Positions 1,833-3,239 of a stretch of 6,714 bases of DNA are shown piece by piece. This DNA comes from a virus. Its lineage: Duplodnaviria > Heunggongvirae > Uroviricota > Caudoviricetes. The stretch is from the IMG/VR virus record IMGVR_UViG_2693429557_000009, positions 1 through 6,714 of that record; one strand, written 5' to 3'. The translations under genes and the position numbers were made by a program. Each line of letters begins with the position of its first letter. Position 1 is the stretch's first letter. The notes beneath the pieces were generated by a model, which was not told the DNA's origin, did no database searches, and saw only the letters and a list, made by a program, of their open reading frames with translations.

Positions 1833-2030
1833 ATGCTAAAACAGCAGGATATGACAGAAACCGCCAGAGTGGTGTTTAATGAATTAAGCGTTACCGAACC
1901 GGCGACAGTCGGGGAGATAGCGCAGAATACTTACCTTTCACGCGAACGCTGCCAGTTAATACTGACCCAGCTGGTTATGGCGGGTCTGGCAGACTATCAG
2001 TTCGGTTGTTACAGACGCCTTCCGCAGTGA
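1833..2030 (+). CDS. Small (65 aa) putative winged-helix DNA-binding protein, FaeA/PapI-like by pattern
   Basis: ATG 1833 preceded by AAAGGAAAAG; segment FNELSVTEPATVGEIAQNTYLSRERCQLILTQLVMAGL has the helix-turn-helix spacing and conserved EIA...L..L...G pattern of small winged-helix regulators (my recollection of PapI/FaeA); its own intrinsic terminator overlaps the stop codon. Confidence 0.55.
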   Translation: MLKQQDMTETARVVFNELSVTEPATVGEIAQNTYLSRERCQLILTQLVMAGLADYQFGCYRRLPQ

Positions 2031-2040
2031 AGGCTTTTTT
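2017..2040 (+). terminator. Intrinsic terminator overlapping the stop codon of the small winged-helix ORF
   Basis: Perfect 6 bp stem gccttc/gaaggc with 6 nt loop, followed by TTTTTTATTT (2035-2044). Confidence 0.6.
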
Positions 2041-2057
2041 ATTTGTGGTAAATGGGC

Positions 2058-2088
2058 GGCTGGTGGGTGTTAGGGGCACCCACCAGCC
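2058..2088. repeat. Perfect 12 bp inverted repeat (ggctggtgggtg / cacccaccagcc) with 7 nt spacer, no downstream T tract
   Basis: Read directly from the sequence; lies between the small ORF terminator and the methyltransferase start; candidate operator or RNA structure. Confidence 0.5.
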
Positions 2089-2129
2089 ATCTGCTCATGC
2101 GTTGGGTTCACAAGCAAACCTCAGGCCCA

Positions 2130-2148
2130 CTGCTTTGCGCAAAAGCAG
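2130..2148. promoter_or_regulatory. Near-palindrome ctgcTTTGCGCAAAAgcag (perfect 10 bp core TTTGCGCAAA) about 35 bp upstream of the methyltransferase ATG; candidate operator
   Basis: Dyad symmetry read directly; typical size and position for a dimeric regulator binding site. Function is inference. Confidence 0.3.
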
Positions 2149-2180
2149 AATGAGCCTATCAGAGACAGGCTTAATGATCC

Positions 2181-3239
2181 ATGCTTAATACTGTAAAAAT
2201 ATCCAGTTGTGAGTTAATCAACGCCGACTGCCTGGAATTTATCCGGTCGTTACCCGAAAATTCTGTTGACCTGATAGTCACGGACCCGCCGTACTTTAAA
2301 GTGAAGCCTGAGGGCTGGGATAACCAGTGGAAGGGCGACGATGATTACCTGAAGTGGCTGGACCAGTGTCTGGCGCAGTTCTGGCGGGTGCTGAAACCTG
2401 CCGGAAGTCTTTACCTGTTCTGTGGTCATCGCCTGGCATCTGATATCGAAATCATGATGCGTGAACGCTTCAGTGTGCTGAACCATATTATCTGGGCGAA
2501 GCCGTCCGGACGCTGGAACGGATGCAACAAGGAAAGCCTGCGGGCGTATTTCCCCGCCACAGAGCGCATTCTGTTCGCGGAACATTATCAGGGGCCGTAT
2601 CGTCCGAAAGATGCCGGGTATGCGGCGAAGGGCAGTGCACTGAAACAGCATGTGATGGCCCCGCTGATTTCTTACTTTCGTGATGCGCGAGCTGCCCTGG
2701 GGATAACGGCAAAACAGATTGCAGATGCCACAGGAAAGAAAAACATGGTGTCGCACTGGTTCAGTGCCGGTCAGTGGCAGTTGCCGAATGAAAGCGATTA
2801 TCTGAAATTACAGGCGCTGTTTGCCCGGGTGGCAGAAGAGAAGCATCGGCGTGGTGAACTGGAAAAGCTCCACCACCAGCTGGTGGATACGTATACCTCA
2901 CTGAACCGGCAGTATGCGGAGCTGCTGAGTGAATATAAACATCTGCGGCGGTATTTTGGCGTGACGGTGCAGGTGCCGTATACCGATGTGTGGACGCATA
3001 AACCGGTGCAGTTCTATCCCGGGAAACATCCGTGCGAAAAACCGGCAGAAATGCTGCAGCAGATAATCAGCGCTAGCAGTCGTCCGGGTGACCTGATTGC
3101 AGATTTTTTCATGGGGTTGGGTTCGACAGTGAAAGCGGCACTGGCGCTCGGGCGTCGTGCAATTGGCGTTGAGCTGGAGACTGAACGTTTTGAGCAGACG
3201 GTTCGGGAAGTACAGGATTTAGTCAGCCAGAACGGATGA
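2181..3239 (+). CDS. Orphan DNA amino-methyltransferase, beta class (probably N6-adenine), with a large internal insertion
   Basis: 352 aa; motif IV DPPY (VDLIVTDPPY) at the N-terminus and HPCEKP followed by AdoMet motif I FFMGLGST near the C-terminus give the IV-before-I order of beta-class amino-MTases; DPPY rather than SPPY favours N6-adenine; residues about 130-280 form an inserted, partly helical region (candidate target-recognition domain). No restriction endonuclease ORF nearby. Confidence 0.88.
   Translation: MLNTVKISSCELINADCLEFIRSLPENSVDLIVTDPPYFKVKPEGWDNQWKGDDDYLKWLDQCLAQFWRVLKPAGSLYLFCGHRLASDIEIMMRERFSVLNHIIWAKPSGRWNGCNKESLRAYFPATERILFAEHYQGPYRPKDAGYAAKGSALKQHVMAPLISYFRDARAALGITAKQIADATGKKNMVSHWFSAGQWQLPNESDYLKLQALFARVAEEKHRRGELEKLHHQLVDTYTSLNRQYAELLSEYKHLRRYFGVTVQVPYTDVWTHKPVQFYPGKHPCEKPAEMLQQIISASSRPGDLIADFFMGLGSTVKAALALGRRAIGVELETERFEQTVREVQDLVSQNG

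Follow-up and report, generated by a model that had tools for sequence, protein, structure and literature searches.

The nearest described system to the locus analysed here is M.EcoGII, which was reported together with M.EcoGI from E. coli O104:H4 C227-11 (Murray et al. 2018, PMC5778455). M.EcoGII is a beta-class N6-adenine methyltransferase without sequence specificity. It stays silent in lysogens, proves toxic on expression, and is presumed to shield phage DNA from restriction (PMC5778455).

Other known systems offer comparisons for the region upstream of the methylase gene. The C proteins of type II restriction-modification systems are Xre-type helix-turn-helix proteins that act on C-box palindromes and come with an endonuclease. 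In the com-mom system of phage Mu, translation of a toxic DNA-modification gene needs the zinc-finger protein Com, which binds a hairpin in the mRNA leader. Structured 5' leaders, including riboswitches and protein-binding RNAs, are collected in Rfam. Lastly, PapI and FaeA are small, stand-alone winged-helix proteins that take part, as co-regulators, in the Dam- and Lrp-dependent phase variation of fimbriae.

We analysed a stretch of 6,714 nucleotides of a Caudoviricetes record (IMG/VR IMGVR_UViG_2693429557_000009), hereafter called the window. It is a lambdoid (Stx-phage-type) prophage region in which a small ORF and a methylase gene form a module between Q/pR'/tR' and three tRNA genes. The small ORF, the terminator, the dyads, the methylase and the tRNAs described in a first-pass annotation are all present where that annotation placed them. 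The relevant features are the following.

790-1611, plus strand: late antiterminator Q gene, 273 aa (PF03589 Antiterm, E 6e-55)
1614-1653, plus strand: pR'-like late promoter, read from the sequence (TTGATT at 1614-1619, 16 nt, TAAATT at 1636-1641)
1689-1713, plus strand: first intrinsic terminator, tR'-like (terminator scan, called at 1689-1708; 7-bp stem and T-run)
1773-1809, plus strand: conserved block CTTGCTG-N10-11-CAGAGTTAYNTGTRTG, 5' of the small ORF (alignment of 35 non-redundant loci)
1833-2030, plus strand: small ORF with an ATG start, 65 aa, stand-alone winged-helix protein (AF2, phrog_331)
2017-2040, plus strand: second intrinsic terminator (terminator scan), overlapping the stop codon of the small ORF and directly 5' of the leader
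2053-2171, presumed plus strand: conserved structured leader, a three-way junction and two hairpins (covariation)
2176-2179, plus strand: the only GATC of the module, at -5 to -2 relative to the methylase ATG
2181-3239, plus strand: M.EcoGII-family orphan beta-class N6-adenine methyltransferase, 352 aa (PF01555, M.EcoGII alignment)
3117-3119, plus strand: codon TTG, Leu313 in the SAM-binding motif I (FxGSG), a Ser elsewhere in the family
3280-3529, plus strand: three tRNA genes, CAU, Arg-UCG and Arg-UCU (ARAGORN, Rfam tRNA, phiP27 annotation)

The methylase and its family

The motifs DPPY, HPCEKP and FFMGLGST that had been read from the DNA at the outset are all present in the 352-aa ORF, and the PF01555 profile matches residues 29-340 with 144.1 bits, against a cut-off of 26.7. 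The motifs follow the order of the beta class, with DPPY at residues 35-38 (2283-2294), then the target-recognition domain (about 2583-2960), and motif I, FFMGLGS, at residues 309-315 (3105-3125). The full-length alignment with M.EcoGII contains 324 identical residues out of 349 (93%), the reference sequence being a machine-read PDF copy with probable OCR errors (PMC11551740, Suppl. Table S1). Only two single-residue gaps were required, both C-terminal to the target-recognition domain. The window's enzyme thus shares with M.EcoGII the order of DPPY, central recognition domain and FxGxG, as well as the prophage setting. It differs by three additional C-terminal residues, by about 25 substitutions, and by Ser313Leu in motif I. 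It is also 94.6% identical to the enzyme of phage 1720a-02, a close homologue named by Murray et al. (PMC5778455).

The setting is that of the M.EcoGII family as well, as the gene is prophage-borne, lies in the late region and has no cognate endonuclease. The window holds no endonuclease gene, and none was found in the relatives, where the downstream neighbours of the methylase are tRNAs, stx or lysis genes. Type II restriction-modification systems have an adjacent cognate endonuclease, and the neighbours in the window are the winged-helix ORF and the tRNAs. The early description of an orphan beta-class adenine methylase devoid of a restriction partner is therefore upheld. On the strength of these alignments, the gene is an M.EcoGII orthologue, and as such represents an already well-known prophage gene type.

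The same annotation had proposed that an internal insertion may confer a novel specificity on the enzyme. The 'insertion' turned out to be the target-recognition domain that members of the M.EcoGII family normally have. Because this domain aligns without gaps with that of the non-specific M.EcoGII, a novel specificity is unsupported; the methylase matches an enzyme that is already characterized. From the properties of M.EcoGII, we infer that the predicted enzyme would methylate adenines regardless of their sequence context, although Leu313 makes this less certain for the present copy.

The late-region context

As first proposed, the module is placed between tR' and the tRNA triad, and the pair of genes is a recurrent cargo unit of the moron site 3' of pR'/tR'. 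The architecture upstream is that of a lambdoid late unit, composed of Q, a promoter with a proximal -10-like pause element and an intrinsic terminator. The promoter, which we liken to lambda pR', harbours TG at -15/-14, and the AACGAT that follows at 1648-1653 resembles a sigma-dependent pause element. This site scored under the threshold of a consensus promoter scan. The motif AACGATGGGC recurs in loci L009, L055 and L058, just 5' of the corresponding terminator.

The Q gene differs among the phages that carry the module; for instance, L001 and L002 have distinct Q genes and the same downstream block. On the left, the block shared by phages with different Q genes begins at the first terminator, where conservation sets in both in alignment A1 and in 35 diverse loci. 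The tRNA trio, whose CAU member is annotated as ileZ in relatives, forms the right boundary. Between the first terminator and the small ORF, the conserved block at 1773-1809 may serve as a promoter or operator, or form a small hairpin; the scan called no consensus sigma-70 promoter in it.

The module was found in 3177 of 5426 complete E. coli genomes (about 59%). Next to the lysis genes, the methylase opens the series of late genes in SfV, mEp460, N15 and phiKO2 as well as in Hafnia, Vibrio and Aeromonas phages.

A conserved structured leader upstream of the methylase

The dyad elements noted at first between the small ORF and the methylase gene include a perfect 12-bp inverted repeat (2058-2069/2077-2088), together with more dyads. 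Our analyses show that these elements make up a conserved, structured leader of ~130 nt that is apparently undescribed. It is composed of helices P1 (2053-2057/2125-2129), P2, which is the perfect repeat, P3 (2090-2099/2109-2118), P4 (2130-2136/2142-2148) and P5 (2153-2157/2167-2171), with P1 closing the three-way junction formed with P2 and P3.

The helices are supported by covariation. In a MAFFT alignment of 45 sequences, the covariation score was 0.131, as compared with 0.076 for shuffled alignments (0/500) and at most 0.089 when the pairing partners were slid. In the model-based alignment, 85% of the pairs are formed, and double changes are found in 30 of the 39 pairs versus 8-17 with slid partners. 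The P3 pair 59/85, which is outside the model, still covaries (CG 34, AU 11, UA 9, UG 6). P1 (UGGGC/GCCCA) is 100% paired with two compensatory events, and it replaced an alternative AUGGG/CUCAU pairing given by RNAalifold. The least supported helix is P5, with 72% pairing. The nucleotides of the junction and loops are invariant, while the helices covary. The dyads thus differ from type II C-boxes, whose half-sites are conserved.

The covariance model of the leader (R1, spanning 2041-2183) yielded one plus-strand match per locus, abutting an ATG, in 66 of 95 sources. The leader extends to N15-like and Vibrio phages, and a methylase gene follows all 116 leader-motif matches. The leader of Vibrio Val-yong3 and that of Aeromonas phiARM81ld abut an ORF coding for a Com-like zinc ribbon, which precedes the methylase. 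The 3' end of the leader keeps a fixed position at the start codon of whichever ORF comes first downstream, the Com-like ORF included. This arrangement points to selection for translational gating of the methylase family.

At the methylase start, the RNA reads UGAUCC, complementary to GGAUCA at the 3' end of 16S rRNA, and it is in register for a putative non-canonical Shine-Dalgarno contact. A GATC lies within -9 to -1 in 37 of 44 leaders, as against a canonical Shine-Dalgarno core at -13 to -5 in two of the 44. Folding predictions give the start region an intermediate accessibility, with a mean unpaired probability of 0.37 at -10 to -1, a value of no diagnostic use. We infer a translational role for the leader and its plus-strand sense.

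The leader resembles the structured 5' leaders of Rfam in having a three-way junction, covarying helices and a fixed position at the translation start. It differs from them in that it matches none on the plus strand, its presumed sense: the search of 2030-2195 on that strand against Rfam 15 gave a best E of 0.42, with all scores far below the gathering scores. We found no description of an RNA motif upstream of phage methylases in a literature search of incomplete coverage, and no description of the leader or the small ORF in the M.EcoGII literature searched.

Other readings of the intergenic region were discarded. A coding reading (ORF 2006-2188, 60 aa) fails, as its frame is disrupted by single-base indels that distinguish lineages. 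The sequence TGTGGTAAAT at 2044-2053, which repeats 1631-1640, was considered as a possible sigma-70 promoter within the leader; its A/T positions are lost in divergent members such as L063, L069 and L081, and the promoter scan called nothing there. Finally, P4 is unlikely to be a transcription attenuator, given that no U-run follows it.

The small winged-helix ORF and the second terminator

AlphaFold2 modelling of the small protein gave an H-H-H-beta-beta topology with a pLDDT of 92.3. The protein belongs to PHROG 331 (phrog_331, E 1e-37), and its RefSeq name is 'TrmB family transcriptional regulator'. The Pfam profiles TrmB, MarR and DprA_WH are all below their cut-offs, and the best fold matches are generic winged helices, namely those of MarR/OhrR, IclR, an O-methyltransferase and SelB. 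A kinship to m6A-sensing winged-helix domains such as that of DpnI was rejected, as these were not among the top fold matches. The family is narrow and phage-only, with 61 cluster representatives among 1.84 billion proteins, and no large parent family emerged when proteins were searched exhaustively. The reading frame is preserved in an allele of 50% identity.

The small ORF lies 5' of the methylase in 126 of 153 loci; among species-level loci the figure is 42 of 66, and among leader-seeded contigs 102 of 111. It is missing from the other 24 species-level loci, which retain the leader and in which unrelated genes fill the slot, so the pairing put forward at first breaks down in part of the relatives. 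The small ORF is the commonest occupant of the slot 5' of the leader, yet it is dispensable.

The first-pass annotation gave this ORF its own ribosome-binding site and terminator. The sequence AAGGAAAAGAC is indeed found 5' of its ATG, and the hairpin GCCTTC-CGCAGT-GAAGGC is present at 2017-2034, followed by TTTTTT; the assignment of the terminator to the small ORF had to be revised. This terminator aligns with the one annotated after the late promoter in N15 and phiKO2. Because a hairpin and U-run 5' of the leader persist in loci without the small ORF, the terminator is to be assigned to the leader-methylase unit and not to the small ORF.

Like the C proteins of type II systems, the small protein would be a DNA-binding protein encoded just 5' of a methylase unit, possibly timing its expression; unlike them, it is a winged helix and has no endonuclease partner. 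What recalls com-mom is a late gene for a toxic adenine-modifying enzyme that comes with a control region of its own and a small ORF upstream; in the Vibrio and Aeromonas relatives, an ORF with a Com-like CxxC..CxxC pattern even separates the leader from the methylase. In the window, however, the small ORF codes for a winged helix without CxxC pairs rather than a zinc ribbon, it is dispensable, and a terminator separates it from the methylase. Furthermore, the ~130-nt multi-helix fold of the leader contrasts with the single hairpin of Mu, and activation is hypothetical in the window.

Discussion

We propose, with a probability of roughly 70%, that the module is a late, Q-dependent anti-restriction unit in which the leader gates a toxic enzyme post-transcriptionally. 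The pR' promoter is constitutive, and tR' is read through only with Q (PMC7547250). Because the methylase gene is located behind a constitutive promoter and two intrinsic terminators, it would remain silent in lysogenic cells, its transcription requiring Q, which after induction would make RNA polymerase terminator-resistant. The methylase would then modify many adenines of the replicating phage DNA and, going by the published properties of M.EcoGII, such dense methylation would shield it broadly from restriction when the next host is infected. Since the enzyme is toxic, a second, post-transcriptional control by the leader is likely; ending at the start codon without a normal Shine-Dalgarno sequence, the leader would control translation. 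Most likely, the small winged-helix protein binds nucleic acid and thereby modulates the module, which is a weak link of the scheme. Of the two roles suggested at the outset, the epigenetic Dam switch is not retained, and the anti-restriction role fits that presumed for the homologue (PMC5778455).

A bolder reading, to which we adhere only tentatively, is that the leader represents a new class of cis-regulatory RNA gating the translation of the toxic methylase via a trans factor, with the winged-helix ORF coding for an RNA-binding accessory. Candidate trans factors would be SAM or SAH, the methylase itself, which methylates RNA too, or the winged-helix or Com-like protein. With similar caution, the class may be regarded as common to lambdoid, N15-like and Vibrio/Aeromonas phages. 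Alternatively, the structure might operate on the minus strand, as an antisense RNA to the 5' region of the methylase gene that keeps it off in lysogens, or else as a DNA element. In favour of the minus strand, 177 pair cells are A-C, which corresponds to G-U on the minus strand, versus 68 that are G-U on the plus strand only, although most of these A-C cells represent a conserved tandem C-A/A-C in P3. In addition, the single-sequence minimum-free-energy fold misses P1 on the plus strand, whereas that of the minus strand reproduces it and recovers the three-way junction. The best Rfam match on either strand, to the family P26 on the minus strand, has 24.2 bits for a cut-off of 36 and was set aside as sub-threshold. 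Nevertheless, P2 contains 39 G-U cells specific to the plus strand, with U-G in 22 sequences at one pair, and the position of the leader relative to the first downstream start codon, that of the Com-like ORF included, speaks against a minus-strand function. No conserved minus-strand promoter or terminator was found in the flanks, and covarying arms with a conserved loop are unlike a protein operator. Both the antisense and the DNA-element readings are thus improbable.

The role of the small ORF within the anti-restriction unit is less clear-cut, as it may be an independent moron that codes for a transcription factor for other phage or host genes, its linkage resulting from a recombination-prone slot and co-inheritance. 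We see this as a serious contender, short of being the favoured view. Its absence from over a third of the species-level loci, with the slot refilled by unrelated genes, and the conserved block of its own upstream are consistent with such autonomy. So are N15 and phiKO2, in which a remote homologue of the small ORF is placed 5' of the late promoter annotated ahead of the leader and the methylase, and L185, in which the small ORF persists beside an AraC-type gene that replaces the methylase. Its adjacency to the methylase may therefore reflect shared descent, not shared function. Conversely, the family is essentially unseen elsewhere, and the methylase follows the small ORF in 73 of 74 loci; the spacing is constant at ~150 nt. 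The N-terminus and the recognition helix are also invariant between alleles that are only 50% identical elsewhere, which argues against a mere passenger. A separate question is whether the window's methylase is inactive or crippled, the module being here a decaying remnant. The sequence DFFMGLGS was found in two of 299 loci, both on one contig identical to the window, and the other 297 have G-S-G. The Ser313Leu substitution falls within the SAM-binding FxGSG motif and stems from a single C-to-T change (TCG to TTG). Near-private as it is, it may impair this copy of the enzyme. However, the ORF is full length with an intact DPPY motif, it shares 93% identity with an active enzyme apart from this change, and residue 313 occupies the nominally variable 'x' of FxGxG; decay is the less likely alternative.

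By far the least probable model is that proposed initially, in which a PapI/FaeA-type co-regulator is coupled to a GATC methylation switch and to a methylase of new specificity. The winged-helix fold it assumed is well predicted, and like PapI (PDB 2HTJ) and FaeA the small protein is a stand-alone winged helix of similar size (65-77 aa); a conserved GATC is also present at the methylase start. The kinship itself is not supported, since no sequence relationship is detectable. None of 26 family members matched the FaeA profile (PF04703) at E<=10, hhalign against the verified PapI sequence (2HTJ) gave a 10% probability, 2HTJ was not listed when PDB sequences were searched with a profile at E<=10, and PapI was not within the top 50 fold matches. 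As for the Dam-dependent switch, the GATC at 2176-2179 is the only one within 1600-3300, paired GATC/Lrp sites are absent, and the context is a phage late operon rather than a fimbrial one. The identity of the methylase with a non-specific enzyme, including a gap-free recognition domain, also contradicts this model. We thus reject both the PapI/FaeA kinship and the Dam-switch architecture.

The preferred anti-restriction unit is made up mostly of ordinary parts, with a known enzyme family and a generic winged-helix protein unconnected to PapI, and the leader is its new part. M.EcoGII is a widely used tool enzyme, and how phages control a toxic, non-specific methylase is undescribed in the literature that we found. 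The leader covaries, is exclusive to the M.EcoGII methylase family and is shared by several phage types, which makes this regulation directly testable. It would add to Rfam an RNA family that is missing from it. Given the proportion of complete E. coli genomes that harbour the module, any leaky expression of the methylase would bear on host epigenomes and on the restriction barriers that limit the spread of phages.

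Genetic organization of the window

The window comes from a lambdoid prophage resembling Stx phages and corresponds to its late regulatory region. All features called in the first-pass annotation were recovered where it had placed them. The features are as follows.

419-793, RusA
790-1611, Q antiterminator (PF03589)
1614-1656, promoter-like site TTGATT-16-TAAATT, then AACGATGGG
1689-1708, first terminator
1773-1809, conserved block CTTGCTG-N10-11-CAGAGTTAYNTGTRTG, 5' of the small ORF
1833-2030, small ORF, 65 aa
2017-2040, second terminator
between the second terminator and the methylase, dyad-rich spacer, ~135 nt
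2181-3239, methylase, 352 aa
3280-3529, three tRNA genes
3606-3815, + strand, STnc100-type RNA (Rfam, 149 bits)
3844-3823, - strand, terminator
3816-3904, - strand, weak OmrA-B-like match
4038-5891, sialate O-acetylesterase-like gene, 617 aa (DUF1737, sialate O-acetylesterase, DUF6645)
after the 4038-5891 gene, holin S gene and DUF1327 gene

In the 3606-3930 region, the STnc100 match on the + strand faces the terminator and the weak OmrA-B-like match on the - strand. This arrangement fits the convergent sRNA pairs that Tree et al. located in the moron site, 3' of PR', for anti-sRNAs such as AgvB and AsxR (PMC4104026). The 4038-5891 protein, encoded after the tRNAs and the sRNA region, is of the NanS-p type of Stx phages, and the window has no stx genes at the site that they occupy in related phages. 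Two copies of the 10-mer TGTGGTAAAT are present: that at 1631-1640 forms the extended -10 of the pR'-like promoter, and that at 2044-2053 lies just 5' of the first helix of the leader described below; conservation of the latter copy as a promoter is lost in divergent members. GATC is strongly under-represented in the window (1-6714), with 9 sites versus 22.6 expected and all 200 shuffles having at least 9; a conserved GATC at the methylase start is one of these few sites.

A conserved structured leader precedes the methylase gene

The ~135 nt 5' of the methylase ATG are conserved in our alignment from E. coli to N15 and phiKO2, with or without the small ORF. We propose that this leader (~2053-2171) folds into five helices, P1 closing a three-way junction with P2 and P3.

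P1, 2053-2057/2125-2129
P2, 2058-2069/2077-2088
P3, 2090-2099/2109-2118
P4, 2130-2136/2142-2148
P5, 2153-2157/2167-2171

For 45 non-redundant sequences aligned with MAFFT, covariation scored 0.131 versus 0.076 in shuffles, none of 500 reaching the observed value, and controls with slid partners gave at most 0.089. In a model-based alignment, 85% of the cells are paired, the score is 0.175 versus 0.075, and double changes affect 30 of the 39 pairs, versus 8-17 with slid partners. P1 pairs in 100% of cells and includes two compensatory events. A further pair, in P3 (CG 34, AU 11, UA 9, UG 6), was not included in the covariance model, and its covariation is independent of model fit.

In 66 of 95 sources, the covariance model gave one match per locus, which is on the + strand and ends at the ATG; the model also matched PY54, PhiR46_1 and Vibrio phage VHML. 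A motif-seeded scan of viral contigs placed a methylase downstream of the leader motif in 116/116 usable cases. A small CxxC..CxxC zinc-ribbon ORF adjoins the leader, 5' of the methylase, in the Vibrio phage Val-yong3 and the Aeromonas phage phiARM81ld (comparison loci L257, 1032-1148, and L008, 1329-1544). One of these ORFs carries the annotation RNA polymerase subunit P, and the other that of a Com-like translational regulator. We found no + strand match to the leader in Rfam 15 and no description of it in the searchable literature. The Photorhabdus/Xenorhabdus loci L065-L094 keep the small ORF, and their methylase spacer is shorter (85-107 nt), different and barely detected by the covariance model. 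This spacer, made up of the ~100 nt that precede the methylase, may represent a second leader type.

The methylase is an M.EcoGII-type enzyme

The methylase assignment held in the PF01555 profile search (144 bits). The protein is identical to M.EcoGII at 324 of 349 residues; the reference sequence (Supplementary Table S1 of PMC11551740) was machine-read, and part of the mismatches resemble OCR errors. M.EcoGII methylates adenine in any context; it is prophage-borne, unexpressed in the lysogen and harmful once expressed (Murray et al., PMC5778455). The phage 1720a-02 enzyme, named a close homologue of M.EcoGII in the same work, shares 94.6% protein and 94.7% DNA identity with the methylase, which is an already known kind of enzyme. 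The internal insertion, from which a novel specificity had been proposed, is the target-recognition domain normal for its family, modelled as a four-helix bundle (residues 160-237; PMC11551740). As both gaps in the M.EcoGII alignment, each of a single residue, lie C-terminal to this domain, a novel specificity is not indicated.

Motif I, the SAM-binding motif, reads FFMGLGS in the window, with Ser313Leu at 3117-3119 (TCG to TTG). G-S-G is found in 297 of 299 related loci; the two exceptions, with G-L-G, are on one IMG/VR contig whose sequence is identical to that of the window. This methylase copy may be impaired by the substitution. Complete E. coli genomes carry the module very frequently: among 5426, a match to 1600-3300 was obtained in 3177, with coverage of 80% or more in 2010.

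The small ORF encodes a winged-helix protein that is not PapI-like

The AlphaFold model of the small protein is a confident winged helix of three helices and a beta-hairpin (pLDDT 92.3), in agreement with the initial prediction. Fold comparison matched it to generic winged-helix domains (O-methyltransferase, OhrR/MarR, IclR, SelB, MotA), and Pfam returned TrmB, MarR and DprA_WH only, all sub-threshold. The protein belongs to phrog_331, a PHROGs family of unknown function. When 1.84 billion representatives were searched exhaustively, 61 relatives emerged, each a small phage or prophage protein of the same type. The suggested PapI/FaeA kinship is not supported: no family member matched PF04703 at E<=10, and hhalign against PapI, whose sequence was checked against PDB 2HTJ, gave 10% probability. 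Since the module contains a single GATC, it does not have a pap-like architecture, and the postulated Dam-methylation switch is likewise unsupported.

Frame and length are retained even in an allele ~50% identical, and the N-terminus and recognition helix are invariant between alleles; judged from its sequence, the small ORF is a real gene. The block at 1773-1809 is kept in Escherichia, Salmonella, Klebsiella, Hafnia, Providencia, Photorhabdus and Xenorhabdus loci. It may act as a promoter or operator or form a small hairpin; promoter calling returned no consensus site in it.

Of 74 small-ORF copies, 73 have the methylase as the next gene, the sole exception being L185 (2207-3048), where a 237-aa AraC-type regulator takes the place of the methylase and a degraded leader is left (37 bits). 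Conversely, the methylase is immediately preceded by a small-ORF homologue, ~150 nt away, in 126/153 loci overall and in 42/66 species-level genome loci; in the sample seeded on the leader motif, 102 of 111 contigs have this homologue. The small ORF is missing, with unrelated genes in its slot, from phages LLS and Eeyore and from 24 of the species-level loci. Hence the small ORF often accompanies the methylase and is specific to this position, but is dispensable. The gp51 protein of N15/phiKO2, encoded upstream of the annotated late promoter, is probably a remote homologue (hhalign, 85.6%).

Strand and possible role of the leader

In the leader alignment, 68 G-U cells pair on the + strand only and 177 are A-C cells. 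The latter mostly correspond to a conserved tandem in P3, for which a functional internal loop is another possible reading. The MFE fold reproduced the junction on the - strand and not on the + strand. Two observations favour the + strand, albeit without proving it: the leader keeps a constant register relative to the first start codon 3' of it, and late transcription runs in this direction.

A canonical SD is present in only 2/44 leaders, GAUC at -9..-1 is kept in 37/44, and there is no U-run 3' of P4. Together with the Com-like genes of the relatives, these features suggest that the leader may gate translation of a toxic enzyme. The conserved structured leader is the main subject for follow-up, and a possible action of the winged-helix protein on this leader is the second.
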